From NCBI GenBank assembly GCA_965221955.1, contig CBDCTA010000029.1:544001-608000 (forward strand): DNA of 64,000 nucleotides. Reading direction: 5' to 3'. The notes beneath the pieces are model-generated. The model ran no database searches. It saw nothing but the letters and a program-made list of their open reading frames with translations, and had not been told where the DNA came from. Position 1 is the first letter of the stretch, and each line of letters opens with the position of its first letter. The position numbers were made by a program, and so were the translations under genes. This document shows, one piece after another, positions 5,323 to 41,800 of the stretch. Source of the DNA: Gammaproteobacteria bacterium. GTDB lineage: Bacteria > Pseudomonadota > Gammaproteobacteria > UBA4575.

Positions 5323-5419
5323 TTATGTACATGGAAGTACTGTATGCCGGTTTTGCACGACTGCATGGATGCAGGAGATAGAACGAAGCAGGATGCTAGA
5401 GTCGAGGAGCAAAAACCGG
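5323..5419 (+). repeat. GGA-hairpin module B with module C (5358-5405) nested in its second loop
   Basis: TTATGTACATGGAAGTACTGTATGCCGGTTTTGCA-[48 bp]-GGAGCAAAAACCGG; uninterrupted 49 bp copies occur at 41732-41780 (+) and 15943-15991 (-). Confidence 0.85.
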
Positions 5420-5468
5420 CGTTTTAAAAAAAGTATCTCTTCTAGCTAATTAGTAGCTACCCATAGTC

Positions 5469-6215
5469 GTGAATAAACCATATAAAATTAAAATCGTCTT
5501 GGTCGAACCATCACACCCTGGAAATATTGGGGCAGCTGCACGTGCAGCTAAGACAATGTGCATTGAAAATTTGGTGTTAGTGAAGCCAGCAGAATTTCCT
5601 AGTGGCCAAGCGCGAGCGAGAGCAACAGGTGCTTTAGATGTGCTAGAGCGTGCTGAGATATGTGATACGTTAAGTGCAGCAATTGCAGATTGCACTTTTG
5701 TGGTAGGTGCGAGTGCACGTGTTCGTGGATTACAATGTCCTGACATTGCTCCTGATGCATTGGGTGATAAAGTATGGAAAGAAGTAGAGCAGGGGAATGT
5801 AGCAATTGTGTTTGGACGAGAGAGCAGTGGGTTATCAAATGAAGAATTAGATCAATGTCATTTCTTAACAACGATACCTGCAAACTGGGAGTTTAGTTCG
5901 CTCAATATTGCATCCGCTGTGCAAGTGATTTGTTATGAAATCTATAAGGCCTATCTAAATAAAAGTAATACTAAAAATGTTTCCGATATATCTGGTGATA
6001 CGGATGAATTAGCAACCGCTGAAGAAGTTGAACACCTATTGGTACACATGCAGCAAGTATTGCAAGAGATCGAGTTTTTTGATCCTAAACAACCTAAATT
6101 GTTAATGCGCCGCTTACGACAACTTTACTGTCGTGCACGATTGTCGCGTGTAGAAACAAATATCTTGCGCGGCATTCTCAGTGCAACTCAAAAATACAAG
6201 CGTAATGCAGACTAA
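5469..6215 (+). CDS. trmJ: tRNA (C32/U32) 2'-O-methyltransferase TrmJ
   Basis: IVLVEPSHPGNIGAAARA, FGRESSGLSNEEL and SSLNIASAVQV SPOUT motifs; lies upstream of iscR. Confidence 0.95.
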   Translation: MNKPYKIKIVLVEPSHPGNIGAAARAAKTMCIENLVLVKPAEFPSGQARARATGALDVLERAEICDTLSAAIADCTFVVGASARVRGLQCPDIAPDALGDKVWKEVEQGNVAIVFGRESSGLSNEELDQCHFLTTIPANWEFSSLNIASAVQVICYEIYKAYLNKSNTKNVSDISGDTDELATAEEVEHLLVHMQQVLQEIEFFDPKQPKLLMRRLRQLYCRARLSRVETNILRGILSATQKYKRNAD

Positions 6216-6302
6216 TTTCCATATTTTTATAAAGGTTATCAATCCTGGTTTTTAAGCTCCCTACCCATGGGGATAGTGAAGCGAACAAACCGCCTATCTA
6301 TA

Positions 6303-6327
6303 ATACCTGAGTAACTTACTGGGTTAT
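6303..6327. promoter_or_regulatory. Putative type-1 IscR operator (autoregulation)
   Basis: 25 bp imperfect palindrome ATACCTGAGTAACTTACTGGGTTAT upstream of iscR; similar to the site upstream of erpA. Confidence 0.7.
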
Positions 6328-6380
6328 TTGTTATACTTACAGTCTCGTAACTGAGCGGATTTTGATAAAGGCGGTACTGT

Positions 6381-6851
6381 ATGAAACTGAGCACAAAAGG
6401 GCGTTATGCTGTGACAGCGATGTTTGATATTGCATTGCACAATCAAACGGGTCCGGTTTCCTTGTCAGATATAGCTGATCGACAAGGTATTTCATTGTCG
6501 TATTTAGAGCAATTGTTTACACGTTTACGACAGCAAGGACTGGTGAAAAGTACACGAGGACCTGGTGGCGGCTATTCACTTGCCATCGATTCTGAACAAA
6601 TTGCGATTTCAGATGTAATTGATGCCGTTGATGAAAACGTCGATGCGACACGTTGCGGTGGTAAAGCCGATTGTCAAAACCATCAACGTTGTTTAACTCA
6701 TGATTTATGGGAAAACTTGAGTGGTGAAATCAGAAGCTATCTCTCAAACATTAGTCTAGCTCAAGCAGTGAGCGATTTAAGTGTTCGTAAAGTAGCGAGT
6801 CGTCAGGATCTGAGTAATAACCAACAAGTTCATCCTGTTGAGTTTAGTTAA
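6381..6851 (+). CDS. iscR: Fe-S cluster assembly regulator IscR
   Basis: [27 protein letters not shown] and three Cys plus THDLW. Confidence 0.97.
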
Positions 6852-6890
6852 GGCGAGTTTAGTTAAAAAATTTATTGAAGGTAAAGCAAA

Positions 6891-8115
6891 GTGACAGATG
6901 TAAAACTACCCATCTATTTAGATTACAGTGCGACTACGCCAGTTGATGAGCGAGTGGCACAAGCGATGATGGATTGTTTAACCAAAGAAGGTAACTTCGG
7001 TAACCCCGCATCACGCAGTCATAGCTTTGGTTGGGATGCAGACAAGGCCGTTGAAGAAGCGCGAGCTAATGTTGCGGCACTCATTAATGCTAATCCTAAA
7101 GAAATTATTTGGACCAGTGGTGCAACAGAGTCTGATAATTTAGCCATTAAAGGTGCGGCGCATTTTTATCAAAAAAATGGTAAGCATTTAATCACCTGCA
7201 AAACCGAACATAAGGCAGTTTTAGATACTTGTCGTCAGCTTGAGCGAGAAGGATTTGAGGTTACCTATTTAGAGCCGCGTAATAATGGTTTGATTGATTT
7301 AGAAGATTTAAAAGCTGCAATTCGTGATGACACCATTTTGATTTCGATTATGCATGTGAATAATGAAATCGGAGTGATTCAGGATATTAAAGGCATTGGT
7401 GAAATCACACGCGAACGCAAAATTATTTTTCATGTGGATGCGGCGCAAAGTCCCTGGGAAAGTACCAGTTGATGTGGAAGAAATGAATGTAGATTTAATG
7501 AGCCTATCTGCACATAAAGTATATGGCCCTAAAGGTATTGGAGCTTTATATGTTCGCAGAAAACCACGTGTACGTATTGAAGCGCAGATTCATGGTGGTG
7601 GCCATGAGCGTGGTATGCGTTCTGGTACGTTGGCTACACATCAAATTGTAGGCATGGGCGAAGCATTTCGGATCGCTAAAGAAGAAATGGCTGCAGATAA
7701 CGAACGAATTTTAATGTTGCGCAATCGTTTATTAAATGGCCTTAAAGATATGGAAGAAATCTATATTAATGGTGACCTTGAACAGCGTATTCCGGGTAAC
7801 CTAAATGTTAGTTTTAACTTCGTCGAAGGTGAAAGTTTAATTATGGCGCTGAAAGATATTGCAGTGTCTTCCGGGTCTGCATGTACAAGTGCATCACTTG
7901 AGCCAAGTTATGTATTGCGCGCATTAGGACGAGATGACGAACTTGCACATAGCTCAATTCGCTTCACTATTGGTCGTTTTACAACGGTCGAAGAAGTGGA
8001 TTATGCGATTGAGTTAATTAGAAAAGCGGTGATTAAATTGCGCGATCTTTCACCTCTGTGGGATATGTATAAAGAAGGGATCGATCTTAAATCGATCGAG
8101 TGGGCCGCGCATTAA
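6891..8115 (+). CDS. iscS: Cysteine desulfurase IscS, split by a +1 frameshift at about 7452-7454
   Basis: ORF 6891-7472 gives the N-half (YLDYSATTP...HVDAAQS) and ORF 7396-8115 the C-half ([18 protein letters not shown]); removing one C from AGTCCCTGGGAAA restores DAAQSPGKVP. Confidence 0.93.
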
Positions 8116-8170
8116 TTATTTTGATTTTTGATTAGGAATAATAAGTAGGAAATATTAGGAGACGATAACC

Positions 8171-8590
8171 ATGGCATATAGTGACAAAGTACTAGATCAC
8201 TACGAAAATCCACGCAACGTAGGATCTTTTGAAAAAGATGATCCCAATGTGGGCACCGGTATGGTAGGTGCACCTGCATGTGGTGATGTGATGAAATTAC
8301 AAATTAAAGTAGGTAATGACGGCATAATTGAAGACGCTAAATTTAAAACCTACGGTTGTGGCTCTGCGATTGCTTCATCTAGCTTACTTACCGAATGGGT
8401 AAAAGGTAAAACGCTAGAACAAGCGAGTGAAATTAAAAATACCGATATCGCTGAAGAACTAGCACTTCCACCAGTTAAAATTCATTGTTCAGTTTTAGCA
8501 GAAGATGCAATCAAAGCTGCTATTACTGATCTTAAATCTAAAGCTGATGGCTCAGCAGAAGATAATCAACAACAGAAGAAAATTGCTTAA
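8171..8590 (+). CDS. iscU: Fe-S scaffold IscU
   Basis: GAPACGDVM, GCGSAIASSS and LPPVKIHCS motifs. Confidence 0.98.
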   Translation: MAYSDKVLDHYENPRNVGSFEKDDPNVGTGMVGAPACGDVMKLQIKVGNDGIIEDAKFKTYGCGSAIASSSLLTEWVKGKTLEQASEIKNTDIAEELALPPVKIHCSVLAEDAIKAAITDLKSKADGSAEDNQQQKKIA

Positions 8591-8599
8591 TCATTAGTT

Positions 8600-8923
8600 A
8601 TGTCTATCTCGCTAACTGAAAGTGCAGCTACACACGTAAAAAGTTATCTTGAAAAAAGAGGTAAAGGTGTTGGTGTGCGGTTAGGAGTGAAAACCACGGG
8701 CTGTTCTGGTATGGCATACACCATAGAATTTGCAGACCAAATTGAAGATGAAGATCAAGTTTTTGAAGACAAAGGCGTTAAGGTTATCGTTGACCCTAAA
8801 AGCATGGTCTATCTTGGCGGCACAGAACTCGATTTTACTCGTGAAGGATTGAATGAGGGCTTTAAGTTTACAAATCCAAACGAGAAAGAGAGATGCGGGT
8901 GTGGAGAAAGCTTCAGTGTGTGA
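8600..8923 (+). CDS. iscA: Fe-S assembly A-type carrier IscA
   Basis: GCSG and CGCGESF motifs; position in the isc operon. Confidence 0.97.
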
Positions 8924-9071
8924 GGAAACTTTGAATTATTCTGCCTTAGTTTAATTGTTATGGTCGTTAAAAAATAATCACAAATCGTTCATGTATATTT
9001 AATACACATCACTCATTTCGATATTTTTTGCCTCGTCTCAACCGCTTCACTAATAAATCAAAGTTCCTTCA
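8921..9071 (+). repeat. ERIC-like element, copy R2 (151 bp)
   Basis: TIRs TGAGGAAACTTTGAATTATT / AATAAATCAAAGTTCCTTCA (17/20); core very similar to R1; the left TIR contains the iscA TGA. Confidence 0.85.
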
Positions 9072-9123
9072 GCAAAACTAAATTTTTTAGATAAGTTAGA
9101 AACTTCTTTAAGACCCTAAATAA

Positions 9124-9666
9124 ATGAATATTGATCTTACTCGAAGCTATTTCGAGCTATTCGGTTTTGATGAAGATTATTCAATTGATCAAGAACAGTT
9201 AGCAGAGAAATATCGAGCCTTGCAAAGCGAATTGCATCCTGATCGCTTTGCAAACGCAAGCGATCAAGAGCGTCGTGTTTCGGTACAAAATACAGCATAT
9301 GTAAACGAGGCTTATGCAACATTAAAAAGTGATTTAAAACGTGCGCATTATTTACTGCAATTGAGTGATATTGAATTCAACGCGGATGCTGAAACATCAA
9401 GTGATGCAGAATTTTTAATGCAAACAATGGAATTGCATGAAAAAGTAGATGAAGCAAGTAGTGCAGAACAACCATTACAGGTGCTCGATAAATTGTCTAT
9501 ACAGTTGAAGCAAGATCAACAAAATCTTATAGAGCAATTTGCTAGTCAATTTAAGGTGGATGATATGCCTGCTGCAAAAGATACTGCTCTTAAACTACAG
9601 TTCTATGAACGCTTGACTAATCAAGTGCGTAAGCTACAAGAAAAAATAGAAGAAGAGTTGTTGTAA
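9124..9666 (+). CDS. hscB: Co-chaperone HscB
   Basis: J-domain HPD motif; RAHYLL; isc operon context. Confidence 0.96.
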   Translation: MNIDLTRSYFELFGFDEDYSIDQEQLAEKYRALQSELHPDRFANASDQERRVSVQNTAYVNEAYATLKSDLKRAHYLLQLSDIEFNADAETSSDAEFLMQTMELHEKVDEASSAEQPLQVLDKLSIQLKQDQQNLIEQFASQFKVDDMPAAKDTALKLQFYERLTNQVRKLQEKIEEELL

Positions 9667-11538
9667 ATGGCGCTTTTGCAAATATCAGAACCTGGTCAAT
9701 CAACAGCCCCACATGAGCATCGATTGGCAGCTGGAATTGATCTTGGTACGACAAATTCCTTGGTTGCAACGGTGCGCAGTGGTGTAGCCGAAACACTCGC
9801 AGATGAAAACGGCGAACACCTTTTGCCTTCAGTGGTGCGCTATATAAGTAACGATGAAATCGAGGTTGGAAAAGCCGCAATCTCACAGGCTGCGGTAGAC
9901 CCATTGAATACCTTGGCATCGGTTAAACGTATCATGGGGAGGTCGGTCAAAGATCTAGCTACATTAGAAGGCTATCTTCCCTATAAATTTAGTGATGATG
10001 TCAGCAATGTACCACGTATTGAAACGATTGCAGGGCCAGTTACACCAATTGAAGTTTCAGCTGAAATCTTAAAGACTTTGCGAGAACGTGCCGAAGCGAG
10101 CTTGGGCGGCGAGTTGAAAGGCATAGTGATTACCGTACCTGCCTATTTTGATGATGCGCAGCGCCAAGCCACTAAAGATGCAGCAACGCTAGCCGGTTTA
10201 AATGTATTTCGTTTGTTAAATGAGCCTACTGCCGCTGCGGTTGCATATGGGCTCGATCAAAAAGCAGAAGGCATCACTGCTATTTATGATTTGGGTGGTG
10301 GCACTTTTGATATTTCCATTTTAAAGCTCACCAAAGGTGTGTTTGAAGTACTTTCCACGGGTGGTGATACCGCTCTAGGTGGTGATGATTTTGACCGCGA
10401 GATTGCTGCTTGGGTTTTAACGCAAGCCAATCTTGATGCCAGTGATGATCATCAAATGATGCGGCGCTTGATGAAAGAGGCACGTCGCGTTAAAGAAGAG
10501 TTAAGTAATGAAGAAGAAGTGCTTATCAGTGTGAAGTTAAATTTAGAGGATAATTTCGAAACTATATTAACTCGCCAACAATTTGAAGAACTAATTGAAG
10601 CACATATTAATAAAACTATTGCTTGGTGTCGTAAAACTATTCGCGAAGCAGGTGTTGATGCTAGTGAAGTTCAGCATGTAGTGATGGTGGGTGGTTCAAC
10701 GCGTACACCTTTTGTGCGCGAAAAAGTTGCTGAGTTTTTTGGTAATCCACCGTTAATTGATATTGATCCTGATAAAGTCGTCGCGATTGGTGCAGCACTG
10801 CAGGCTGATAAACTTGCAGGTAATAATCCTGATGAAGATATGCTGTTGTTAGATGTTCTACCTTTGTCATTAGGCATTGAAACAATGGGAGAATTGGTTG
10901 AAAAAATTATCGAGCGTAATACTGTTATTCCAGTTACCCGGGCACAAAAATTTACGACTTTTAAAGATGGGCAAACGGCAATGCGTATACACGTATTGCA
11001 GGGTGAGCGCGAAAAAGTTTCAGACTGTCGCTCGCTTGCGACGTTTGATTTAACCGGTATTCCACCTATGGTAGCAGGTGCAGCTCATATTCAAGTTACT
11101 TTCCAAGTGGATGCCGACGGCCTTCTTAGTGTTAGCGCAGAGGAACTAAGCAGTGGAGTGCGCGCAAGTGTTGAAGTGAAACCTTCGTATGGTCTTAGTG
11201 ATACCGAAATTGAGACAATGTTAAAAGCTTCTTTTGAGCATGCAGAAGAGGATATGCGAATAAGAATGCTTGCTGAGCAACAAGTAGAGGCAGATCGAGT
11301 TTTAGAAGCATTACGATCCGCTTTAGCGAAAGATGGCTCATTATTAACCGAAGAAGAGTCCGCTAAAATACAGCGAGCTAAAAGTGTTTTATTGCAAGCA
11401 CGTAATGGTAATGACGAAGAGAAAATTAAACAAGCGATTAAAGCGCTTGAAAGTGACAGCGAAGAATTTATTGCACGACGTATGAATCGTAGTGTGCAGC
11501 AAGTGATGAAAGGTCACAAGCTCGAAGAATTTGAATAA
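9667..11538 (+). CDS. hscA: Fe-S chaperone HscA
   Basis: [11 protein letters not shown]-terminus, GIDLGTTNS and DLGGGTFD Hsp70 motifs. Confidence 0.97.
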
Positions 11539-11565
11539 CAAGCATTGGTACAAAGGAATTAAGCG

Positions 11566-11904
11566 GTGCCTAAAATTACATTTAAACCTCATGAAGAAAT
11601 TTGCCCAGAAGGCAAAGTGATCGAGGTAGAATCTGGTATCAGTATTTGTGATGCGGCTTTAAGTAATAAGATTGAAATAGAACATGCATGTGAGAAGTCG
11701 TGTGCGTGTACAACCTGTCATGTCTATGTGCGTGAAGGGTTAGATTCCTTAGCTGAGGCTGAAGAAAATGAGGAGGATTATCTTGATAAGGCTTGGGGTT
11801 TGGAGCCCGATTCTCGTTTGAGTTGTCAGGCGATTGTGGGTGAAGAAGATTTGGTGATTGAAATTCCAAAGTACACTATCAATATGGTTTCCGAAAACCA
11901 CTGA
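11566..11904 (+). CDS. fdx: ISC 2Fe-2S ferredoxin
   Basis: EHACEKSCACTTCH and SRLSCQ motifs. Confidence 0.97.
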   Translation: MPKITFKPHEEICPEGKVIEVESGISICDAALSNKIEIEHACEKSCACTTCHVYVREGLDSLAEAEENEEDYLDKAWGLEPDSRLSCQAIVGEEDLVIEIPKYTINMVSENH

Positions 11905-12028
11905 AAATGCGTATTTATGTCTCAATATGTCGTTGTTACAGTTTTTTCCAATGCTCATTTACAATCTAGTAAACTGCGCTTCTCAAAAACTGTGCGCCTA
12001 ATTTCGAGACAAAATCCACTATTTTCAG
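11901..12028 (+). repeat. ERIC-like element, copy R3 (128 bp, different TIR subfamily)
   Basis: Ends CTGAAAAT..TGTCTC / GAGACA..ATTTTCAG; core CGTT-ACAGTTTTT..GCTCATTTAC..GTAAACTGCGC..AAAAACTGT-GCCT; contains the fdx TGA. Confidence 0.75.
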
Positions 12029-12072
12029 CGCCCTTGTTGTAACAAAGTCTCATCATAGTCGAGGATGTAAAT

Positions 12073-12273
12073 ATGCAATTAAAATGGACGGATTCGTTGG
12101 ATATAGCCATCGCTTTAGATGAAGCACACCCTGATGTGGACCCTCAATATGTGAGGTATACGGACTTACATGCCTGGATTTGTGCCCTTGAGGAATTTGA
12201 TGATGAGCCTGAAGCTTCCAATGAAAAAATTCTCGAGGCGATTCAGATGGCCTGGTTGGATGAACGTGACTGA
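12073..12273 (+). CDS. iscX: Fe-S assembly protein IscX
   Basis: [13 protein letters not shown] and [12 protein letters not shown] motifs. Confidence 0.95.
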
Positions 12274-12463
12274 TTGGCTATTTAGCCCCTCAGATAACTG
12301 GCATTTTTGCCTTCCTTTGCGAACCGCTAAAACATTGCTTCCTGCTGCTTGCTGGGAGTAGAATTCACTGAAAAATATAAGGAAAATTACGGATAAATCA
12401 ATCTGTAAGCCTTATAAGTTAGATTTCATATTAATTACAACAATTATCTAGGAACATATATTT

Positions 12464-12922
12464 ATGGCAATGGAACGCACACTGTCTATCATCAAACCAG
12501 ATGCAGTACTTAATAATGTGATTGGAGATGTTCAAGCACGAATAGAAAGTGCAGGGTTATCCATCATCGCCGTAAAGATGACGCGCTTAAGTAAAAAACA
12601 AGCAGCCTCATTTTATGAAATACATGAAGGAAAAGATTTTTACGAATACTTAATTAAATTTATGACCTCAGGTCCTGTAATTGTACAAGTGCTCGAAGGT
12701 GAAAATGCAATTAAGAACTATCGCAAAGTAATGGGTGCGACGATGTTTGGAAATGCAGAAAAAGGAACAATTAGAGAAAAGTATGCTACTTCAAATGCGC
12801 ACAATGCGGTACATGGTTCTGATTCACCTGAAAATGCCATACGTGAAATTGCTTTCTTTTTTCCTGAACGACAAATTTATCCAAGAAAAAATTATAAGTT
12901 AACTACAGACCCAAACGCATGA
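12464..12922 (+). CDS. ndk: Nucleoside diphosphate kinase
   Basis: [18 protein letters not shown] and NAVHGSDS (catalytic His); ndk-rlmN synteny. Confidence 0.94.
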
Positions 12923-14067
12923 ACTCTGTTGAAAAGAAATTTGTTAATCAAAACTTGATGGGTATGCCGCATCAAGATTTGGCACAATATTTTTCTGATC
13001 TGGGTGAAAAGTCATTTCGTGCCACGCAAATTATGAAGTGGACACATCAACACGGTATTACTGATTACGTGCAAATGACGAATCTTAGTAAGTCATTGCG
13101 TGATTGGTTAAGTGAAAATGCAATCATTCAACTACCTGAAATGTTGAATGAAGAAATTTCTACTGATGGTACGCGAAAATGGCTGCTACGTGTAAACGAA
13201 AAAAATGCTGTGGAGACGGTATACATTCCTGAAGAGGATAGAGCGACATTATGTGTTTCCTCACAGGCGGGTTGCACGTTGGATTGCACATTTTGTGCTA
13301 CCGCAAGACAGGGTTTTGCGGGAAATCTTACCTCAGCACAAATTATTGCCCAGCTTTGGTTTGCAGAGCATCGCTTACGTAAGCAACTGAATAAGCCAAG
13401 AGTCATCAGCAATATAGTATTTATGGGCATGGGCGAACCGTTGGCGAATTTTGATAATGTGGTGAAAGCCATAGATATCATGATGGATGACAACGCTTAC
13501 GGGTTAGGAAAACGCAAAGTCACAGTGAGCACATCTGGTATCGTGCCTAAAATGGATAAATTGCGTGAAGTGCTGGATGTTAGTTTAGCAGTATCATTAC
13601 ATGCGCCGAATGATGAAATTCGTAATCAGCTTGTGCCTTTAAACCGGCGTTATCCAATAAAAGAATTAATTGCAGCTTGTCATCGTTTTCTAGAAGACAA
13701 AAACCGCAAACACAGCATTACTTTTGAATATGTCATGTTGGATCAAGTCAATGATCAGCCTGAACATGCCAAGCAATTAATCAAAGTGATTAAGGGCTTA
13801 TCGTCAAAAGTGAACTTAATTCCTTTTAATGCATTTGAAAATTCTGGTTATCAACGTTCATCTGATCAAGCGATCGATACATTTAAAGAAATTTTACAAG
13901 CTGCAGATATAACTACGATTACACGTCGTCCCCGTGGCGAAGATATTGCAGCTGCTTGTGGGCAGTTAGCAGGAGATATTAAGGACCAAGTTAAACGCCA
14001 GCGTCATTATGAAAAACTATATGAAGCGGATCTTTTGAAACATAAGATCGAGGTCCAATACGTATGA
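12919..14067 (+). CDS. rlmN: Dual-specificity RNA methyltransferase RlmN
   Basis: [22 protein letters not shown] and DIAAACGQL motifs. Confidence 0.97.
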
Positions 14068-14840
14068 CGCTGCATAAGTTAATTTTGTTGAGCGTAATAG
14101 TGCTGATTTTATCTGCATGTGCGACCACTTCTAGCACAGATGAACCTCTGGGACAAAACCAAAAAGCTGCAGCAATTAATGTGCAGTTAGGCGTGAATTA
14201 TCTCGGCCAGGGCGAATTTGAGTTAGCAGATAAAAAATTACGTCGTGCTTTGAAACAAGATCCAAGTTCAGCAACTGCTCATTGGGTGTTTGCTTTGTTG
14301 CAGGAAAGACTGGGAGAAGAAGCTGTTGCAGAAAAACATTTTCGTAAAGCGATCTCTTTAGACCCTAAAGATTCTAAGGCGCATAACAATTATGGCACGT
14401 TCTTATGTAAGCAAGATCGGGTTGAAGAAGCAGAAAAAGAATTTCTTCGCGCGATTGAAAATCCTTTATACGCTGATGCAGCTTCTGCCTACGCAAATGC
14501 GGGTATTTGTGTTTTGAAAGTTCCGGATAAGGTAAAAGCGGAAGAATATTTTCAAAAGTCATTAGGCTTAAATGCTTCGCATCGTTCTGCTTTGTACCAA
14601 ATGGCATTGTTAACCTTTGAGCGTCAGGAGTTTGTGCAGACTTCATATTATATGCAGCGTTACGAGAGCGTAGCGAAACATAATTCCCAATCTCTGTGGG
14701 TCGCATATCAAACAGAGGCCAGTCTTGGTAACCAAGGTAAAGCAGACGACTATGCGCATCAGTTGAAAAGATTATATCCAGCTTCTCAGGAAGCGAGATT
14801 GTTAGCAGAAAGTTATTGGAATGCAGGAAGAAAAAATTAA
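14064..14840 (+). CDS. pilW: Type IV pilus biogenesis/stability TPR lipoprotein PilW (PilF)
   Basis: Lipobox LSAC, TPR repeats and NNYGTFLC; rlmN-pilW-rodZ synteny. Confidence 0.9.
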   Translation: MTLHKLILLSVIVLILSACATTSSTDEPLGQNQKAAAINVQLGVNYLGQGEFELADKKLRRALKQDPSSATAHWVFALLQERLGEEAVAEKHFRKAISLDPKDSKAHNNYGTFLCKQDRVEEAEKEFLRAIENPLYADAASAYANAGICVLKVPDKVKAEEYFQKSLGLNASHRSALYQMALLTFERQEFVQTSYYMQRYESVAKHNSQSLWVAYQTEASLGNQGKADDYAHQLKRLYPASQEARLLAESYWNAGRKN

Positions 14841-15759
14841 TTTCGAGACACAAGAGTCGGCTAAAAAGTCGATTGAAAAAAGCGTAAGTATCGGCGCTTT
14901 GCTCGTGAACGCGCGTAAAGCTGCTTCATTAAGTCAAGTCGATGTTGCTGAACAAATAAATTTACCTTTGCGTATTGTAAAGGCGCTTGAAGCGGATGAT
15001 TTTGATAACTTACCAGAAGCTACTTATATCCGTGGTTATTTGCGCAACTATGCACGTATTGTTGGAATCAATGCAGATCTATTAATTAACACTTTTAAAG
15101 AACAGCATCATCAAGAGCCTGAGGTGATTACTCCAATACGCTCTAAACAAAGTTATGATCCTGCAATACTATGGAGCACGGCCGCAGTATTTACTATTCT
15201 TGTTGGTTTAGTGGTTACATGGTGGTTTGAATCTAATCCTGTAACTACACCGAGTGTTGAACTTGTTAGTAATGAAAGTACTGCGAAAACGAATACTGAG
15301 ATGAAGCAGGATTTTAAGCACCCTCTCGGTAGTAAAGATGAGTCGGCAGTAGCTGAAGTCCATGATGAACTCCCAGTGCCGATGATTGATCACCAAACAT
15401 CAGAAATGAATAATCCCAGCGTTGTTGATGTCATCACTGAAGATCAGCAACAAGCGATGGAAGATGAATCACGTAACCCTAATCTGGTGAGTCTAAATGA
15501 TGGTGCGCAGATGCTTACTGTCACCTATGTAGAAAAAAGTTGGACAGAAATCAGAGATGCCGATGCAAATACCCTTATGCAAGGTTTGATTGAGCCCGGA
15601 GTCGTGAGAAACTTAAGAGGAAAGCCGCCTTTTGAGGTTTTTCTTGGTAATGCACCCGGCGTAGTAATAGAAGTTAATGGGCTCTATTTTGATCATTCGC
15701 AATATAATAGAAGTAATCGCACAGCACGATTTCAGGTATCGAGCAGCTCACCCAATTAA
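14821..15759 (+). CDS. rodZ: Cytoskeleton protein RodZ
   Basis: N-terminal HTH (YIRGYLRNYAR), single TM helix and C-terminal SWTEIRDA...LGNAPGV domain. Confidence 0.9.
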   Translation: MQEEKINFETQESAKKSIEKSVSIGALLVNARKAASLSQVDVAEQINLPLRIVKALEADDFDNLPEATYIRGYLRNYARIVGINADLLINTFKEQHHQEPEVITPIRSKQSYDPAILWSTAAVFTILVGLVVTWWFESNPVTTPSVELVSNESTAKTNTEMKQDFKHPLGSKDESAVAEVHDELPVPMIDHQTSEMNNPSVVDVITEDQQQAMEDESRNPNLVSLNDGAQMLTVTYVEKSWTEIRDADANTLMQGLIEPGVVRNLRGKPPFEVFLGNAPGVVIEVNGLYFDHSQYNRSNRTARFQVSSSSPN

Positions 15760-15782
15760 ATTATTCTTTGCAGAGCCACTCA

Positions 15783-16032
15783 AAGAGGCTCTGATTTATT
15801 AATGCAATGGCTGATATTAGGCAAAAAATGTCGACAAATCTGCCAGGAGCAGATTTGGAAAGCTATGCTAGCCAAAGGCCGAGCGCCAGGAAGGTGCGAG
15901 TCAAATAAGCAATATGTATTGATTTATACATTAGCGATTTGATCAGTTTTTGCTACTGCAAAACTGGTATACAGTACTTCCATATACATAAGATCATTTT
16001 TAACAACATATCAGAATAAATCAGAGTTTCTT
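15783..16032 (-). repeat. ERIC-like element, copy R4 (250 bp, inverted), carrying module A (15835-15903) and module B (15943-15991)
   Basis: TIRs AAGAGGCTCTGATTTATT / AATAAATCAGAGTTTCTT (16/18); removing the two inserts restores a sequence collinear with the reverse complement of R2. Confidence 0.85.
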
Positions 16033-16038
16033 CCAATA

Positions 16039-17328
16039 ATGTCTAAGCGAATACAATCCATTCGCGGCATGCACGACGTGCTGCCGCCAGACAGTAATAA
16101 GTTACGTGCCATCGAGCATGCTACTCAGGATATTTTACAGCAATATGGGTATCAAGAAATTCGCATGCCTATATTGGAACAAACAGAACTGTTTAAACGT
16201 TCGCTGGGTGAAGTAACAGATATCGTAGAAAAAGAAATGTACACTTTCGAAGATCGCAATGGCGATAGCCTAACTTTGCGTCCTGAAGGTACTGCTAGTT
16301 GCGTGCGTGCTGGGATTCAACATGGATTTATTTACGGTCAACCGCAAAGACTTTGGTATTGCGGACCATTTTTTAGACACGAACGTCCACAAAAAGGACG
16401 TTATCGACAATTTCACCAGCTTGGTGTGGAAACTTTTGGCTATGTTGGTCCTGATATTGATGCAGAGTTAATTATATTAAGTGCACAGATGTGGAAGAAA
16501 ATTAATCTTCCCATGCAACCAAAGTTAGAAATTAATAGCTTAGGTTCGTTACAAGCTCGAAAAAGTTATCGTGAAAAGCTCATTCATTACTTGCAGCAAC
16601 ATGAAGATAAGCTAGATAAAGAAGCGCGACAACGTTTACAAACCAATCCAATGCGAATTCTGGATAGTAAAAATCCTGACATGCAAGAGATCATTCAAAA
16701 TGCGCCGAGTCTTTTAGAACACTTGGATGTTGAATCTGCTGAGCATTTTTTACAGTTGCAAAAAATATTAGATACAGTAGGTATTGAATATCAAATTAAT
16801 CCACGCTTAGTGCGTGGTTTAGATTATTACAGTAAAACTGTATTTGAATGGATCGCAGATGGCTTAGGTGCACAAGCGACTATTTGTGCAGGCGGCCGTT
16901 ATGATGGATTGGTAGAGCAGTTGGGAGGCAAGCCCTGTCCCGCAGCGGGTTTTGCGATTGGTTTAGAGCGATTGGCTTCACTGCTAGAGGATAATCAAGC
17001 AGGGGATCAATTATCTAGTTCTTCAATAGATGTTTATATGGTCCTGATGGGCGAAGCGGCTGAAATTGCAGGTACTCAACTAGCCAGTCAGTTACGCAGC
17101 CAGCTGCCCACCTCTTCTGTGATAACAAATTGTGGTGGCGGTAGTATAAAATCACAAATGAAGCGAGCCGATAAGTCCCATGCAAGGCTGGCTTTTATTT
17201 TGGGCGAAGATGAATTGAAAGATCAAAATGTCACAGTGAAATTCTTGCGCGAAAAACGTGAGCAAGAAACTGTGGCACAAAATGAGTTAGCTGCTTTTTT
17301 GACAGCTTATCTTAGCAATAAACCTTAA
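16039..17328 (+). CDS. hisS: Histidine--tRNA ligase
   Basis: LRPEGTA, RHERPQKGRYRQFHQ, LVRGLDYY and GGRYDGL motifs. Confidence 0.98.
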   Translation: MSKRIQSIRGMHDVLPPDSNKLRAIEHATQDILQQYGYQEIRMPILEQTELFKRSLGEVTDIVEKEMYTFEDRNGDSLTLRPEGTASCVRAGIQHGFIYGQPQRLWYCGPFFRHERPQKGRYRQFHQLGVETFGYVGPDIDAELIILSAQMWKKINLPMQPKLEINSLGSLQARKSYREKLIHYLQQHEDKLDKEARQRLQTNPMRILDSKNPDMQEIIQNAPSLLEHLDVESAEHFLQLQKILDTVGIEYQINPRLVRGLDYYSKTVFEWIADGLGAQATICAGGRYDGLVEQLGGKPCPAAGFAIGLERLASLLEDNQAGDQLSSSSIDVYMVLMGEAAEIAGTQLASQLRSQLPTSSVITNCGGGSIKSQMKRADKSHARLAFILGEDELKDQNVTVKFLREKREQETVAQNELAAFLTAYLSNKP

Positions 17329-22823: not shown

Positions 22824-22950
22824 GAAGTTCTGATTTATCTTGCTATGTTGTTAAAAGCTCTCTCGCAATGCTCATGTATAAGTTTATACACTCCGCTTGC
22901 TCGAGATCTTTTGCCTAATAGCAGCCACTTCGTTAATAAATCAGAACTCC
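22824..22950 (+). repeat. ERIC-like element, copy R5 (127 bp), between antitoxin and toxin
   Basis: TIRs GAAGTTCTGATTTAT / ATAAATCAGAACTCC (14/15); core GCTCATGTATA..TATACACTCCGC..GCCT. Confidence 0.85.
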
Positions 22951-29528: not shown

Positions 29529-29531
29529 GTC

Positions 29532-30202: not shown

Positions 30203-30285
30203 GGTGCTATATAAATTGAATTCTAAAAATGAGCTATAAAAGAGTACATATACCGTTGATCGGCGAAGCTTGCTAGGATTCATTA

Positions 30286-31440
30286 ATGACAAAGTGCAAG
30301 GTATCTACACGTTTACGGCAAGTTAACGCATTTCATGTGATGAGCTTAATGGCTGAAGCTAAAAAGCTTGACGCGCAAGGGCGCCAAGTCATTCATATGG
30401 AGATGGGTGAACCCGATTTCTCTACTCCGCAGCCAATTATTGATGCAGGCATTCGAACTTTACAATCGGGTATTACGCAATACACACCTACATTAGGTTT
30501 ACCTGCATTACGTGAGGCGATAGCTGAGTTCTATTCAAAAGAATACCAAGTTGCGGTTGAAGCTGAGCAAATCATTATTACACCTGGCTCCGCTTCGGGA
30601 TTACAACTCGTGTTGAATTTAATGGTTTCTGAAGGAGATACAGTAGCTTTTGCAGATCCTGCTTATCCCAGCACACATAATTTAGTGCGTTTATTAGGTG
30701 GCAAAGTTTTACAGATCCCAGTGCACGAAGGCTCGATGTGGCAGCTTACTGCTGAAATACTTGAAGAAAATTGGAATGATTCCATTAATGCAGTGTTATT
30801 GGCGAGCCCTTCAAATCCTACTGGAACTATTCTTGATGATATGCAATTGCAAAAAATCGCAGATTTTTGCGAGTCTAAAGGCGTGTTTTTGTTAATGGAT
30901 GAAATTTATCACGGTTTAGTTTATGCACAGGCACCAAAAACAGCAGCAGGCTTAAACGATAATACTTTTGTGATTAATAGTTTTTCAAAGTTTTATGGTA
31001 TGACAGGTTGGCGAGTAGGTTGGATTGTTTCGCCCAAAGCGTATTTAGATGATGTAAATAAACTCGCACAGCATACTTTTTTGGCAGCACCTACATTAGG
31101 CCAACATGCAGCTCTGGCTGCATTTCAAGATGATGCGCAAAAAATTCTTATTCAGAGAAGAGATGAATTCAAGCTGCGGCGTGATTATCTGTATCAAGCA
31201 TTATTAGATTTGGGTTTTGAGATACCGGTTAAACCAGAAGGTGCATTTTATATTTATGCTGATTGCACAGCATTTACTCAAGACAGTTATGAATTTGCAA
31301 CTAAAGCGTTACAAGAAAAGTATGTTGCATTTACACCAGGTATAGATTTTGGAGAAGCTGGAGCAAAACAACATGTGCGTTTTGCCTATACTACTAATCT
31401 TGAAAACTTAAAAATAGGTATGCAGCGGCTTGCTGAGTGA
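30286..31440 (+). CDS. Class I/II PLP-dependent aminotransferase
   Basis: GEPDF, SPSNPTG, DEIYHGL and SFSKFYGMTGWRVGW motifs. Confidence 0.93.
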   Translation: MTKCKVSTRLRQVNAFHVMSLMAEAKKLDAQGRQVIHMEMGEPDFSTPQPIIDAGIRTLQSGITQYTPTLGLPALREAIAEFYSKEYQVAVEAEQIIITPGSASGLQLVLNLMVSEGDTVAFADPAYPSTHNLVRLLGGKVLQIPVHEGSMWQLTAEILEENWNDSINAVLLASPSNPTGTILDDMQLQKIADFCESKGVFLLMDEIYHGLVYAQAPKTAAGLNDNTFVINSFSKFYGMTGWRVGWIVSPKAYLDDVNKLAQHTFLAAPTLGQHAALAAFQDDAQKILIQRRDEFKLRRDYLYQALLDLGFEIPVKPEGAFYIYADCTAFTQDSYEFATKALQEKYVAFTPGIDFGEAGAKQHVRFAYTTNLENLKIGMQRLAE

Positions 31441-31611
31441 GCACAAGAATGTGCGAATATGAAGTCTATCAAGGATGATGCAACAGATTAAAGTTAGGTT
31501 GGCTAATTTTTCAGACATAACCGTTATTGGTTTTACGGAAATTTTGAAATCTCTAAACTTTAATCTGTAACAGCATTCATGTGGTTTAGTCACATTCGCA
31601 CATTTCTACGC

Positions 31612-31821
31612 TTACATCGCAAGTGATGAGTTGTGATACAAAGTAGAAGCTTTCTTGCAAAGAGTTTTGCGAACTTCTTCTTGATATTGGTCTTCAAAAC
31701 GTGGGATTTGTGAAGCAGCAGTCATGAGGTACCACAATCCATTGCGTTGCTTCATAAAATAAGAAACAAGCTTATTTGCTTCTCGTTTTGCTCTGGCGAG
31801 CATGAGTTCGTCCTGCATCAT
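31612..31821 (-). CDS. Small hypothetical protein
   Basis: 69 aa ORF preceded by a strong AAGGAGG RBS. Confidence 0.5.
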   Translation of the reverse strand: MMQDELMLARAKREANKLVSYFMKQRNGLWYLMTAASQIPRFEDQYQEEVRKTLCKKASTLYHNSSLAM

Positions 31822-32751: not shown

Positions 32752-32791
32752 GCAGAGAGATCTTTAAATATCTTTAACTTGCTATTTAAAC

Positions 32792-33190
32792 TTAAAGTGA
32801 ATTAGGAAGTTCTACTGGTGCGCTTGCTTGCCACCCAGGCTTACGGTGTTCCACGGTAACATAGGTATAGATGCCGCCTCGGATATTAAAGTCACCTGTA
32901 ATCCGCATAAATCGGGGCTTTAGCAAAGTTGCAATATCGCTTAGAATTTCATTAGTTATTGCTTCGTGAAATGCTCCTTTGTCTCTAAATGACGTCATAT
33001 ACAATTTGAGTGCTTTTAGCTCTACACATAGTTCGTCGGGAACATACTCAATTAAAAATTTGGCAAAGTCAGGTTGGCCAGTAAGCGGGCACAAGCAAGT
33101 AAATTCAGGAATACGAATACGAATGGTGTAATCGGTTTCAGTTTGTGGATTTTCAAAAGTTTCTAAATGTTGTGTATGAAGGTTCGTCAT
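32792..33190 (-). CDS. queF: NADPH-dependent preQ0 reductase, type I (short) QueF
   Basis: [28 protein letters not shown] and RGGI motifs. Confidence 0.95.
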
Positions 33191-33258
33191 TGGGGTTTAC
33201 TCTTTTGTAATGTACCTTTTGGTTAACTCATTTTAACGAATAACGAGTGAATATATAG

Positions 33259-36759: not shown

Positions 36760-36822
36760 CTTTATTTCTTTCTATATAAACACTCTGTGCAAGTTTAGTC
36801 TGTTTAGGATTACGTAAACTAT

Positions 36823-37599
36823 ATGGAACTTGAGCTACGCATTGCATTATTGTTAATTGGTTTAGTAGTGATCGTGGTGCTGTACTTTTTTGGTAAATCC
36901 AAACGTGCAGTGCATCAACGTGAAGATAGTGAGTTTGACTTTTCCAGTAACGACCTTCCTGATCCGCTTGAAATTGATCAACCTCTAGATTTAGAAACAG
37001 ATCTTGTCAATGAAAAGAGCCAAATTAGTGATGCAGGTAATGAGCTAAATGATCTGTTACGAGAAGAGATTATAGAATCGCCACGTATAAGTATTCCTAA
37101 AGATAAGCCTTCTTTTAGTCATCAGCCCAGTCTGTTAGATGAAGATCCCGAGCCACTAGAATTAGAAGAAAAACTTGTGGTGTTACATGTTATGGCGCGT
37201 CGACCACAAAAGTTTAGTGGTAAAGGTATCGAAAGTTTAAGTAAAGAACTTGATCTTGAGCTTAGCGATAAGCAAATTTTTAATAAAAATGTCGAACGTT
37301 TTAGTGGTAAAAAAGCCCTTTATCATATGGTAAATATTGTAAAACCAGGCACCTTTGAAAAGCATTCAATGGACGAATTCGAAACACCCGGTTTAAGTTT
37401 CATATTAAATTTGCCAGGACCTGAGGAAGGTTTGCGAGCATTTAATATCATGCTTGAAGATGCAAAAAAATTTGCCGAGCGTTTAAATGGTGATTTACTA
37501 GATGAGTCACGTAGTCGTTTAAGCCCACAGATGACAGCTCATTTGCAAGAAGATATTCAATTATTCAGTTTAAAAAATCCCCGCCCTGTACAAGCATAA
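36823..37599 (+). CDS. zipA: Cell division protein ZipA
   Basis: N-terminal TM anchor; C-terminal NIVKPGTF...TPGL FtsZ-binding domain; smc-zipA-ligA synteny. Confidence 0.9.
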   Translation: MELELRIALLLIGLVVIVVLYFFGKSKRAVHQREDSEFDFSSNDLPDPLEIDQPLDLETDLVNEKSQISDAGNELNDLLREEIIESPRISIPKDKPSFSHQPSLLDEDPEPLELEEKLVVLHVMARRPQKFSGKGIESLSKELDLELSDKQIFNKNVERFSGKKALYHMVNIVKPGTFEKHSMDEFETPGLSFILNLPGPEEGLRAFNIMLEDAKKFAERLNGDLLDESRSRLSPQMTAHLQEDIQLFSLKNPRPVQA

Positions 37600-37723
37600 G
37601 GAAACCCTGATTTATCCTGGCTATTTCGTTGTATAATGGCCTCAAATTCACTCATGTATGCTTAATACACATCGCTCTTTTCGGCATTTTATGCCTCATC
37701 CCAAGATAAATCAGGGCTTCTTT
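37598..37723 (+). repeat. ERIC-like element, copy R6 (126 bp)
   Basis: TIRs AAGGAAACCCTGATTTATCCTGG / CCAAGATAAATCAGGGCTTCTTT (20/23); overlaps the zipA TAA. Confidence 0.85.
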
Positions 37724-37761
37724 GAGATTGGTATCAAATTTAAAGTATTTGTATAGCATAA

Positions 37762-39786
<2,025 letters not shown>

Positions 39787-39875
39787 ATTGTTTGACAACT
39801 GTTTATGGCTATTAGATAGTTTTGCTTATCATGCTTTGCTAACACTCAACTTGTCTAAATTTAGAGTACGAAAAC

Positions 39876-40247
39876 TTGAAGACTGAACGTAGAGCGGTAG
39901 CGCGCTATAGAGAAAAATTATCCGTGCAGATTGAAATGGATGATTATCGATTTGAGGCTACTACCACTGAAATATCTTTACAAGGCTTGCGAATCTTATG
40001 TGCAGGTCCTGTTGCTGTGTCAGTATTTAGTCAATACATACAGGTAACGCCTGGCGAGAATATTACCGCGAATATCCAGATTAAGACCCTAAAATCGAAT
40101 GGTTTATCAGATACTCTGAGTTGTATTGCTAGAGTAATCACTGTTAACCGTGTTTCTCAAGACAGTTATATCGTTGGGTTTAAAATCATAGAGTTTGCTG
40201 CTAGCGAGCAAGAACGTTGGCATGAATACATTGCTATAAAGCATTAG
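39876..40247 (+). CDS. PilZ-domain protein
   Basis: ERRxxxR and EISLQG motifs; G.K near the C-terminus. Confidence 0.75.
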   Translation: MKTERRAVARYREKLSVQIEMDDYRFEATTTEISLQGLRILCAGPVAVSVFSQYIQVTPGENITANIQIKTLKSNGLSDTLSCIARVITVNRVSQDSYIVGFKIIEFAASEQERWHEYIAIKH

Positions 40248-40302
40248 TAGATAAAAATGTCAGCTTCAAAGCGGATTGCAAAAGTATTAATAGGGAACTT
40301 CA

Positions 40303-40836
40303 ATGCATATTGTTCTGAGTATTATTACTGCCTTGGCAGGACTTGCTTGGGCGCTCACATCGTTACAAAAATCTGGTTTTGATATAAATTCCTTAAATCC
40401 ATTCCTTTGGCATCGTCGCAATTCTTGGCGTAAAAAATATGATGCAAAACCTATTTATAAATTATCTGAACCTCTTGATGTAGCTGCATTGCTTTTATTA
40501 GGTATAGCTAAATGCGAAGGTGAAGTGAGTACTGAGCAAAAAAATCAGCTTACTGAAATTTTTCAAAAGGATTTTCACTTAAGTGCAGACGACGCTTCAG
40601 ATCAACTGCTTGCGAGCTCGCACTTGCTGCGTGATGAAATTTATATCGTCGATAATATTGATAAAATTCTTGAGAAAAGTAGTACTAAATTTTCGTCAAG
40701 CCAAATATTATCATTGCTTGAATTGATGGAGCAGATTGCGAAGCTGGAAAGTCCTATTAATCAAGAACAAATTAAATTAATCAATGCTACACAGCAATAT
40801 TTTGCTAAAATAAAGAAAGGGCCTAGTGATTGGTAA
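40303..40836 (+). CDS. TerB-like domain protein with N-terminal membrane anchor
   Basis: AALLLLGIAKCEGEVSTEQ resembles the TerB AxxDGxxxxxE motif. Confidence 0.6.
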   Translation: MHIVLSIITALAGLAWALTSLQKSGFDINSLNPFLWHRRNSWRKKYDAKPIYKLSEPLDVAALLLLGIAKCEGEVSTEQKNQLTEIFQKDFHLSADDASDQLLASSHLLRDEIYIVDNIDKILEKSSTKFSSSQILSLLELMEQIAKLESPINQEQIKLINATQQYFAKIKKGPSDW

Positions 40837-40874
40837 AATCCTGATAATTCTTTCTAAATTTCGCAGCATATAAA

Positions 40875-41639
40875 TTGTCTAATATTCATCCAACTGCGGT
40901 TGTCTCATCTAAAGCAGAAATCGATTCCGATGTAAAAATCGGTCCATATAGCGTTGTTGAAGATCATGTCGTGATCGGTTCAGGGACTGAGATTGGCCCG
41001 CATTGTGTGTTGCATTCTCATGTGAAGCTTGGCAAGAGTAACCAACTGCATGCTCAGGTTGTGATAGGTGGCTTGCCACAAGACTTATCCTTTAGCGGTG
41101 ACGAGACTTGGGTCGAGATAGGCGATGAGAATATCATTCGTGAATACTGCACAGTGCATCGTTCGACCAATCAAGATGCTCCCACTACTTTGGGCTCCAA
41201 ATGTTACTTAATGACTTATGCACATGTTGCGCATGATTGCCAATTGGGTAATGAAGTGATTCTCACTGCTTATGTCGGTTTAAGTGGCCATATCGAAATC
41301 GGCGACAAGGCTAACTTGGGTGGGCACGTAGGTACACATCAATTTATTCGTATCGGTAAGATGTCGATGATTGCAGGTTATACACCTGTACGAAAGGATG
41401 TAATGCCATATTGTTTGTTGGGGGGTGATCCTGTACGTCATATGCGTTTAAACACTATTGGTTTACGCCGTTCAGGTGTAAAGGGTGAGCAATATAAAAA
41501 ACTTGAGCAAACCTTTCGTAATTTAAGAGAAGGTGCTTCGGTAGAAGATCAACAAGGCACGCCAGAGATTGATCATTTGCGCGAGTGGATGTTGGCGCCT
41601 TCTAAGCGTGGAATATATGGATTTTTAAAAGGAGGATGA
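40875..41639 (+). CDS. lpxA: UDP-GlcNAc O-acyltransferase LpxA family, stand-alone copy
   Basis: IHPTAVV, hexapeptide repeats, PQDL, IREYCTVHR, HVAHDC, HQF and LNTIGLRR motifs. Confidence 0.88.
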   Translation: MSNIHPTAVVSSKAEIDSDVKIGPYSVVEDHVVIGSGTEIGPHCVLHSHVKLGKSNQLHAQVVIGGLPQDLSFSGDETWVEIGDENIIREYCTVHRSTNQDAPTTLGSKCYLMTYAHVAHDCQLGNEVILTAYVGLSGHIEIGDKANLGGHVGTHQFIRIGKMSMIAGYTPVRKDVMPYCLLGGDPVRHMRLNTIGLRRSGVKGEQYKKLEQTFRNLREGASVEDQQGTPEIDHLREWMLAPSKRGIYGFLKGG

Positions 41640-41800
41640 GATCTGATTTATCCTCATACTTCGTAAAAAATAATTTCAACGTCGCCATGTGTGACCAATA
41701 CATATCGTTAGCTTCGATATTTTTTGCCTGGTTATGTCCATGGAAGGATTGTATGCCGGTTTTGCAGGAGCAAAAACCGGTCGGGAACAAATCAGAATCT
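41638..41800 (+). repeat. ERIC-like element, copy R7 (about 163 bp), carrying module B (41732-41780)
   Basis: Ends TCTGATTTAT / ACAAATCAGA; core CTTCGTAAAAAATAAT..TCGATATTTTTTGCCT as in R2; starts at the lpxA TGA. Confidence 0.8.

Follow-up and report, generated by a model that had tools for sequence, protein, structure and literature searches.

Short twin-hairpin modules with GGA loops, nested in each other and in host repeats, belong to a family present in many Gammaproteobacteria

Very small dispersed repeats are common in bacteria, and few of them have a known origin. The elements considered here lie in a stretch of 64,000 nucleotides (the window; positions 544001-608000 of contig CBDCTA010000029.1, below C29) of a gammaproteobacterial genome (assembly GCA_965221955.1, below G000), in which a first-pass annotation had described three short modules built of hairpins with GGA in their loops, B, C and A, inserted into copies of a host repeat, R, and into each other. 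The nearest known kinds of element are the REP/REPIN-RAYT systems, hairpin elements derived from IS200/IS605, the small dispersed repeats (SDR elements) of cyanobacteria, and mosaics of the ERIC and BIME type.

REP sequences carry GTAG or CGTC at their head. They resemble the modules in being short, palindromic, intergenic and non-autonomous, in their concentration at the 3' ends of genes and in the lack of a target duplication. The modules, however, start with TTAT or CGAC and consist of two unlike hairpins, whereas REP doublets are inverted; moreover, RAYT was not found in G000 and was present in only one of 14 genomes of the genus, and RAYT loci elsewhere are not flanked by modules. In PATEs (palindrome-associated elements), which derive from IS200/IS605, insertion takes place 3' of a conserved tetra- or pentanucleotide. 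PATEs share with the modules a left and a right hairpin and the absence of a target duplication, and a single-strand logic is plausible. In contrast to PATEs, the two hairpins of a module differ from each other, the loop is conserved rather than the foot of the stem, and TnpA was not found in G000. The left flanks of B-type modules are variable, many of them ending in TC, and no conserved word was seen among them.

The SDR elements of Nostoc, reportedly described by Elhai et al. in 2008, are said to be very small mobile repeats of 21–27 nt with nested insertions and hairpin contexts; the modules are like them in being tiny, nested and found in hairpins, whereas SDR elements are shorter, cyanobacterial and not known to have GGA loops. 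ERIC copies with internal inserts are known, and ERIC/IRU, BIME and the Neisseria mosaic elements are modular intergenic mosaics as well. Unlike in ERIC, IRU and BIME, the inserts studied here are themselves a family with many genera and several hosts, and 5,426 complete E. coli genomes contained no module match. A literature search, supplementary files not being covered, revealed no such elements, and six module sequence strings as well as their U-spelled forms remained unmatched. A paper on Thiomargarita concerns unrelated MITEs (miniature inverted-repeat transposable elements) (PMC4853749).

Modules B, C and A in the window and in the genus

Modules B and C, each about 50 nt long, are discrete units of conserved structure that have entered several unrelated contexts without duplication of the target. 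The window sequence confirms three copies of B, one C within the loop of a B hairpin and one A within the repeat copy R4, each where the first-pass annotation had placed it (Table 1). All three sites (B+C, R4 with A and B, and R7 with B) are intergenic according to gene calls made with our own simple scorer of open reading frames (ORFs). The two copies of B that are borne by R occupy different places of the host repeat, as had been claimed; both places recur elsewhere in the genome, R position 1 at C21:10258, C18:16494 and C5:68414 and R position 2 at C28:89506 and C2:167015. Further copies were searched for with iterated nhmmer in the whole assembly, which yielded nine matches for B, 12 for C and 38 for R, but only a single one for A. 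This assembly comprises 2.69 Mb in 29 contigs with about 38.5% G+C and is 96.6% complete. It includes near-duplicate contigs of 94–99.8% identity, presumably strain variants (C14/C23, C10/C29, C19/C3, C6/C24, C12/C13, C11/C26 and C8/C18), so that repeat counts in G000 are slightly inflated.

Folding as single-stranded DNA, compared with 200 shuffles, gave z values of -3.71 and -3.32 for B copies, -3.35 for the B+C composite, -2.97 for C and -2.69 for A, and B keeps its outer hairpin around C in the composite. These folds recover the hairpins that had been named in the first-pass annotation, except that the second loop of the B copy at 15943-15991 is AGTA instead of AGGA and that the first hairpin of the copy at 41732 has just 3 bp. 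Within R4, A and B lie in opposite orientations. A terminal inverted repeat, of 5 bp, is present in C only and is missing from B and A; a classical MITE was therefore rejected for all three, as was also indicated by orthologous junctions without a duplication.

The host repeat R is itself a MITE-like element with terminal inverted repeats of about 17 bp, a base length of 109–113 nt between the repeat cores and a possible TA duplication that is indistinguishable from the repeat ends. Between tandem genes it is co-oriented with them in 25 cases and opposed in 7. Its copies fall into length classes of 109–113 nt when plain, 157–170 nt with B, 213 nt with B and C, and 238 nt with A and B (R4). These classes differ by the lengths of the modules. 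Removal of a module had been claimed to restore the host cleanly, which holds for R7: without B it measures 108 nt, and in an alignment to 10 plain R copies of 110–134 nt its gap runs do not exceed 4 nt against the nine copies of 110–113 nt and reach 24 nt at most against the copy of 134 nt. R4 without A and B is 120 nt long, about 8–10 nt too much, with gap runs of 4–13 nt, so that its restoration is only approximate. Six R copies were found in the window, one fewer than the earlier numbering implied. One of them lies at a site of strain-level difference: a contig from sequencing run X1, which otherwise follows the window (69 differences in 4.9 kb), has 151 other letters in place of R at 8914-9119.

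The junctions are also supported by other contigs. A contig of 4765 nt from X1, the probable source run, covers 11262-16026 with four differences, and one of 382 nt from run X2, a marine metagenome of a second study, covers 15721-16102 with one difference; an X1 contig covering 4000-8914 bridges the B+C site. Since R4 with A and B is thus bridged in two studies and the B+C site in the source sample, the junctions are not an artefact of assembly. Joints in which A or B is skipped were considered as excision products and rejected: their sides measure 20–35 letters with extra letters between them, and they fit paralogous R copies.

Table 1. Modules, host repeats and T-type units by position in the window
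Feature	Position	Strand	Description
module B	5323..5419	+	49 nt without C; free, in a divergent intergenic region; loop of second hairpin split by C
module C	5358..5405	+	48 nt; in loop of second hairpin of B, between GCA and GGAGC
module A	15835..15903	+	69 nt; inside R4; three predicted hairpins, two with GGA in the loop
module B	15943..15991	-	inside R4 at R position 1, after ...AATGATC
module B	41732..41780	+	inside R7 at R position 2, near right end of R7
R4	15789..16026	-	238 nt; carries A and B; found by terminal-repeat pairs
R7	41641..41797	+	157 nt; carries B near right end
R copy without modules	4375..4464	+	nhmmer match C29:548375-548464
R copy without B, C, A	8929..9063	+	polymorphic; X1 contig differs at 8914-9119
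R copy without modules	22828..22946	+	found by nhmmer and terminal-repeat pairs
R copy without modules	37605..37716	+	found by nhmmer and terminal-repeat pairs
T-type unit, degenerate	31436..31504	+	directly after stop codon of gene 30286-31440; nhmmer T match C29:575436-575504
T-type unit, degenerate, inverted	31521..31615	-	same intergenic stretch; nhmmer T match C29:575615-575521

For each of the three sites, filled and empty orthologous counterparts were sought in 14 further genomes of the genus, and clean pairs without target duplication were obtained. Of 11 relatives that could be evaluated at the B+C site, three are filled (G005, G013 and G007) and eight lack B; G002 and G010 show the exact empty junction, with neither duplication nor loss. 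The filled relatives carry diverged B-type modules at the same nucleotide, together with a decayed insert at the place of C in G005 and G013 and with two B types in tandem in G007. The divergence of these orthologous copies indicates that the copies are old. At the R4 site all 13 of 13 relatives have 23–38 nt, compared with 279 nt in G000. At the R7 site, R with B at the same position is also found in G010 and G004, the latter with an additional inverted C, while G011, G014, G007, G002 and G003 have 13–34 nt and five relatives have unrelated sequence.

Module A occurs at the same place of R also in G005 and G007 and, within R-like flanks, in G010. Since it was seen in R-like sequence only, A is taken here for an optional part of a single R subfamily rather than for an element with a proven mobility of its own. 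The first-pass annotation had taken all three modules for ultra-short mobile units. What stands of this, for B and C, are the sharp units, the unrelated contexts and the absence of duplications; for A the claim is unproven, and the copies look old rather than active.

Spread, structure and targets of the family

B and C belong to a family that is spread over many Gammaproteobacteria. A query of R7 with its B matched 14 of 31 relatives, which as kin do not count as independent, among them G020 from another family, with about 90% identity over the module. The exact 26-nt core of B, i.e. its second hairpin, was found in at least 115 contigs from diverse Gammaproteobacteria; among the matches listed are the genera Marinobacter, Stenotrophomonas, Pseudohongiella, Saccharospirillum and Thalassocella as well as sponge and clam symbionts and a few metagenome-assembled genomes from outside the Gammaproteobacteria. 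A covariance model built from 65 B-core modules (model R1), whose top match in G000 is the B copy at 41732-41780, matched 17 genomes in a class sample of 151 (about one per family), with up to 17 copies per genome. Viral contigs gave no exact match to the B core and plasmids no match to the B query; a query of the related type D, described below, hit plasmids at one place, in a 1.8-Mb Halomonas record.

Fragments of IS91-like and IS30-like transposase genes in other taxa contain B-type modules, in antisense orientation. When the 49 nt are excised, the reading frame stays open across the join and a conserved stretch ...M-T-W-A-Q-R-L-K-R-V-F appears in 11 of 12 IS91-like loci, which were chosen by eye; L159 failed, and L150 was set aside, being near a contig end. 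The contexts of B thus include free intergenic DNA, two positions in R, a site after a terminator and, in other taxa, the two kinds of insertion sequence (IS) gene fragment. The same codon position of the IS91-like gene holds a B-type module in many genera, and an IS30-like fragment of sponge-symbiont genomes contains one as well (loci L142, L154, L156, L169, L171, L192, L196, L199, L203 and L217; L163). Around the B-type modules in IS genes, only C-terminal gene fragments were seen.

For the analysis of structure, 63 of 69 distinct B-type sequences and the two window copies were combined into an alignment of 65 (A1), in which the second hairpin is invariant by the way the sequences were found and the first hairpin varies. 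The first hairpin covaries: compensatory changes occur at four of its five pairs, and its covariation score of 0.183 compares with 0.061 in shuffles, none of 500 reaching it, and with far lower values in slid controls. Of the cells, 83.7% are paired, a share that is raised by the omission of L148, L164, L194, L207, L210 and L214, whose 5' halves are apparently truncated or unlike the others. As the sequences represent few related types, few independent events stand behind the covariation. The loop is NGGA in 59 of the 65 modules and is preceded by the A of the closing pair. Mismatches in the first hairpin are G:T or T:G in 12 cases and A:C or C:A in 11; this equality does not favour folding of one strand as RNA.

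G000 contains further types on a similar plan, labelled D and T by us. D is a twin hairpin that follows the plan of B with different stems and has 18 matches in the genome; T is a twin hairpin with a conserved tail and has about 60 matches that cover the hairpin part (for the count of T orientations, the 60 of 143 nhmmer rows covering the twin-hairpin part were kept). The three modules had been described as unrelated in sequence; they did not, however, originate separately in this genome, as B shares its architecture with D and both belong to the wide family. Among all 64 trinucleotides, GGA/TCC is the most frequent in short hairpin loops of G000, with 738 of 48,243 or 15.3 per 1000, compared with 10.5–14.4 per 1000 for the others, and clusters of five to six short hairpins were found with GGA only, among 12 trinucleotides tried.

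These modules, or the related D type, are found nested in loops of hairpins similar to their own. In B and in D alike, C interrupts the second hairpin between GCA and GGAGC; D is the more usual host, and an empty D copy exists. In total C was found in four different host hairpins. D is placed after GGA in the loops of T hairpins and also, exactly between left arm and centre, in palindromic sites that we call v sites. In other taxa, nine of 23 D-type contexts (two more are unclassed) are flanked by stems of 7–12 bp, and the hosts, judged by eye, are GGA-loop hairpins too, often in the opposite orientation. Over all types, the 79 instances reduce to 76 distinct contexts, of which 11 are stem-flanked, compared with 3.1 of 76 in a permuted control. 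As the host hairpins themselves have GGA loops, element and target look alike for the C and D types. Of 38 B-type contexts, none is flanked by such stems.

Several composites of this kind were seen outside the window. In another family of the class, G138:C5:205280-206269 (L268) consists of composite repeats of several kinds of GGA-loop hairpin with large inverted pairs, and the second hairpin of its D-type units matches, by eye, the empty D copy of G000. At C17:70385-70460, the 5' part of tRNA-Arg is duplicated some 60 nt upstream of the intact tRNA-Arg(TCT) gene, and the D-loop of this fragment contains a D-type module; at C2:171088-171240, five GGA hairpins are clustered upstream of tRNA-Arg(TCG).

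The v sites, labelled v1 and v2 by us, are palindromic sites of 28 bp with a layout of 11+6+11, and 165 matches were obtained at up to five mismatches. v1 and v2 differ in the 6-bp centre, and paired sites are spaced 45–55 nt apart. They accompany arrays of small ORFs on the same strand, mostly for short membrane-like or unknown proteins, in which each ORF is followed by a v-site pair; these arrays lie outside the window, at C5:676-6887, C23:10825-23303, C26:69642-75805, C29:132350-136417, C11:52-6592 and C10:2270-3680. The layout is that of integron-like cassettes without an integron integrase. One of the arrays has xerD as its neighbour, in G000 and in G010 alike. The strain-variant contigs C10 and C29 carry arrays of different content. 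v1 is conserved throughout the genus (14 of 14 genomes) and extends to one sister genus; it was not detected in 15 other genomes.

Movement of the modules and rival explanations

We lean towards the view that B and C, together with D and T, form a widespread family of non-autonomous modules of about 48–52 nt, old in this genome, which would have been mobilised in trans by an enzyme that reads shape. Each module is a pair of hairpins with NGGA loops closed by CA..TG or GC..GC, and modules would once have been inserted whole and without target duplication into intergenic DNA, into R and into IS genes of other taxa; the C and D types would also have entered the loops of other GGA hairpins, producing nested composites. 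The trans-acting enzyme would recognise the shape of hairpin and GGA loop in single-stranded or extruded DNA, on the element as well as on the target, which would account for insertion without duplications, for targets in loops and for the nesting of like in like. The copies in this genus are probably fossils that were multiplied mainly by transposition of R, in subfamilies holding B and A, and by vertical descent.

The search for such an enzyme gave no candidate that goes together with the modules. RAYT/IS200, IS110 and reverse transcriptase (RT) had been suggested earlier, but none was found in G000 or in complete relatives, and RAYT loci elsewhere lack flanking modules. In detail, the profile PF01797 (Y1, RAYT/IS200) had no match in G000; Y1 was present in one of 14 genomes of the genus and was not found in the complete, module-bearing G010 and G014. 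PF04986 (Y2) had no match in G000 either, which is uninformative by itself as the control matched 0 of 14 genomes, and an IS91-like protein query returned from G000 only the module's own translation. Ten Y1 loci of G020, G015, G001 and G018 have flanks without profile matches to B, C, D, T, R or A and with few GGA hairpins, and in G138, G105, G086 and G158 the listed Y1 genes are all at a distance from the listed modules, as judged by coordinates. In the class sample, Y1 occurs in 13 of 17 module-bearing and 76 of 134 other genomes (p = 0.19) and Y2 in six of 17 and 18 of 134 (p = 0.03). The latter association is confounded, since some modules sit inside Y2 gene fragments (IS91-like fragments make up about 14 of the 76 distinct contexts, by eye), and 11 of the 17 module-bearing genomes have no Y2 match. 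G159 and G057, flagged as unpublished, enter the Y1, Y2 and CsrA tallies only among the 134 module-negative genomes. None of Y1, Y2 and csrA is both necessary and specific for the modules.

Several observations weigh against a family mobilised in trans. IS110 and RT profiles, like Y1, have no match in the 96.6%-complete G000, no presence or absence of a module distinguishes near-duplicate contigs in their collinear parts, and an excised form was sought in the X1 and X2 contigs and not seen. Much of the copy number of B in this genome can be explained by the spread of R, and B-type modules have no preference for loops, none of their 38 contexts being flanked by stems of at least 7 bp. The scan with the exact core, and with it the model made from it, is biased to one young subfamily, to which the six omissions from A1 are to be added. 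In a tree made from six gene segments of the flanks, G000 falls into one group with G011, G014 and G003, which are all empty at the B+C site; the patchy pattern at this site requires four gains or five precise losses. Transfer of alleles between species could equally explain it, and the flanks of the site in G000 look mosaic.

A function as RNA has also to be considered, in which the modules would be portable, putative CsrA/RsmA-binding hairpins with ANGGA apical loops, selected in untranslated regions or in sponge RNAs; we regard this as unlikely. Nesting in loops would then survive by sparing the host hairpin, and the idea is compatible with mobile DNA. The CsrA motif is given as AUGGA/ANGGA in apical loops (PMC5207318), a pattern that the NGGA loops of the 59 of 65 modules match with the preceding A of the closing pair. 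Together with the pairs that close them, the loops have the sequences CA-NGGA-TG and GC-AGGA-GC, G000 has one csrA, and clusters of four to six GGA hairpins exist, two of them with weak RsmY matches (E = 0.14 and 0.21), which recalls the repeated ANGGA apical-loop hairpins of CsrB, RsmY and RsmZ. GGA-hairpin loci are most frequent in convergent regions (1.13 per kb, compared with 0.54 in tandem and 0.39 in divergent ones), and in tandem regions GGA hairpins are co-oriented with the genes in 65 cases against 42 (p = 0.03). However, the RsmY scores of 19.7 and 19.0 bits lie far below the Rfam gathering score of 57, Rfam 15 has no match in the window (at the gathering threshold) or in 16 B-bearing loci, and an E-value search of eight GGA-cluster loci returned just one tRNA and the two weak RsmY rows. 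Unlike the CsrB-type RNAs, the modules stay below Rfam thresholds and are dispersed in both orientations: four of nine B matches, window copies included, are antisense to both neighbouring genes, A and B are opposed in R4, the modules in IS gene fragments are antisense, and the asymmetry between strands expected in the mismatches of the first hairpin is absent. Finally, in the class sample 14 of 17 module-bearing genomes and 109 of 134 others have a csrA match (p = 1.0), and G150, at 90% completeness, has 13 modules and no csrA match. The likeness of the loops to the CsrA motif is real; a putative function at the RNA level is unsupported. Some arrangements near csrA or terminators may be noted separately. 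At C29:283158-283352 (L009 359-552), a 36-codon ORF is followed, ahead of an intrinsic terminator, by six GGA-loop hairpins, one of which is C; this is the cluster with the RsmY score of 19.7 bits (E = 0.14), and a B-like module follows past the terminator. In a genome of another family, at G116:C56:11603-12015, a twin-hairpin module follows csrA at a distance of about 200 nt and on the other strand, maybe by chance, and in G000 modules lie 2.5–7 kb from csrA, which may be chance as well.

Three further explanations concern the DNA itself. That D, T and perhaps other types are mini-cassettes of a tyrosine recombinase, attC/Xer-like, which would serve the v sites and cassette arrays, is suggested by the position of D, which begins with the same CGACC as the 6-bp centre of v sites and separates this centre precisely from the left arm, by T units between a degenerate and a full v1, and by the inverted 11+6+11 arms that separate the small ORFs of the arrays, v1 being present throughout the genus. 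As in integron attC arrays, v-site pairs flank small ORFs and might form a long, imperfect hairpin whose variable loop contains GGA hairpins; unlike there, the integrase was not found in 14 of 15 genomes and AAC/GTT core triplets are, by eye, not in the expected places. This comparison concerns D and T and not B, C and A of the window, where no v match exists (C29:544001-608000) and none of the three lies beside a v site, and B-type modules occur in taxa without detected v1, e.g. G020 (none in 15 genomes outside two genera). The integron integrase profile TIGR02249 exceeded its cut-off in one of 15 genomes, G013, which has one v1 site, and its matches in G000, of 83 and 77 bits, resemble XerD and XerC. 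We consider this explanation quite unlikely. The gene of G013, at G013:C20:40615-41559, is the only true integron integrase of the genus (386.9 bits, cut-off 265); this genome has just the one v1 site when up to three mismatches are allowed.

Single-strand transposition by an enzyme of the RAYT/IS200 type (HUH Y1) or of the IS91 type (Y2), since lost from the genus, would account for an anatomy that is HUH-like, with hairpins at both ends and no target duplication, and the Y1 and Y2 tallies of the class sample and the IS91-like contexts given above count in its favour. Against it stand the rarity of Y1 in the genus, the ten Y1 loci without modules, the confounded link with Y2, the lack of a Y2 match in most module-bearing genomes, and the left flanks of B, in which no conserved tetranucleotide was seen; it appears very unlikely to us. 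Hardly credible is the assumption that nothing here was ever mobile, and that the modules are variable internal segments of decaying repeats (R, T) shuffled by recombination. It would fit A, with its R-like context, and the fact that B at two R positions defines R subfamilies that are present in other genomes too. The free B at 5323, however, has a clean empty orthologous junction with no R nearby, modules interrupt the coding sequence of two unrelated IS families, and C occupies four host hairpins. For B and C this explanation is largely refuted, and for A it may hold.

Returning to the family mobilised in trans, sharp ends, clean empty sites in sister species, covarying stems with NGGA loops, landing in loops of its own kind and a near-identical core shared across many genera make it testable what moves repeats below 100 nt. 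For annotation, the modules explain odd length classes of MITEs and breaks of frame in IS genes, and no Rfam 15 family matched them. A wider proposal, which we put forward tentatively as a doubtful but attractive one from the sequences compared here, is that a class of micro-transposons of about 50 nt, leaving no target duplication, is moved by an unrecognised enzyme common to many Gammaproteobacteria, for which the shape of hairpin and loop would be cargo and target signal at once, and that these elements would scatter CsrA-type hairpins and so rewire post-transcriptional control. If it is true that the loops bind CsrA, the family would be a route for the spread of regulatory sites.

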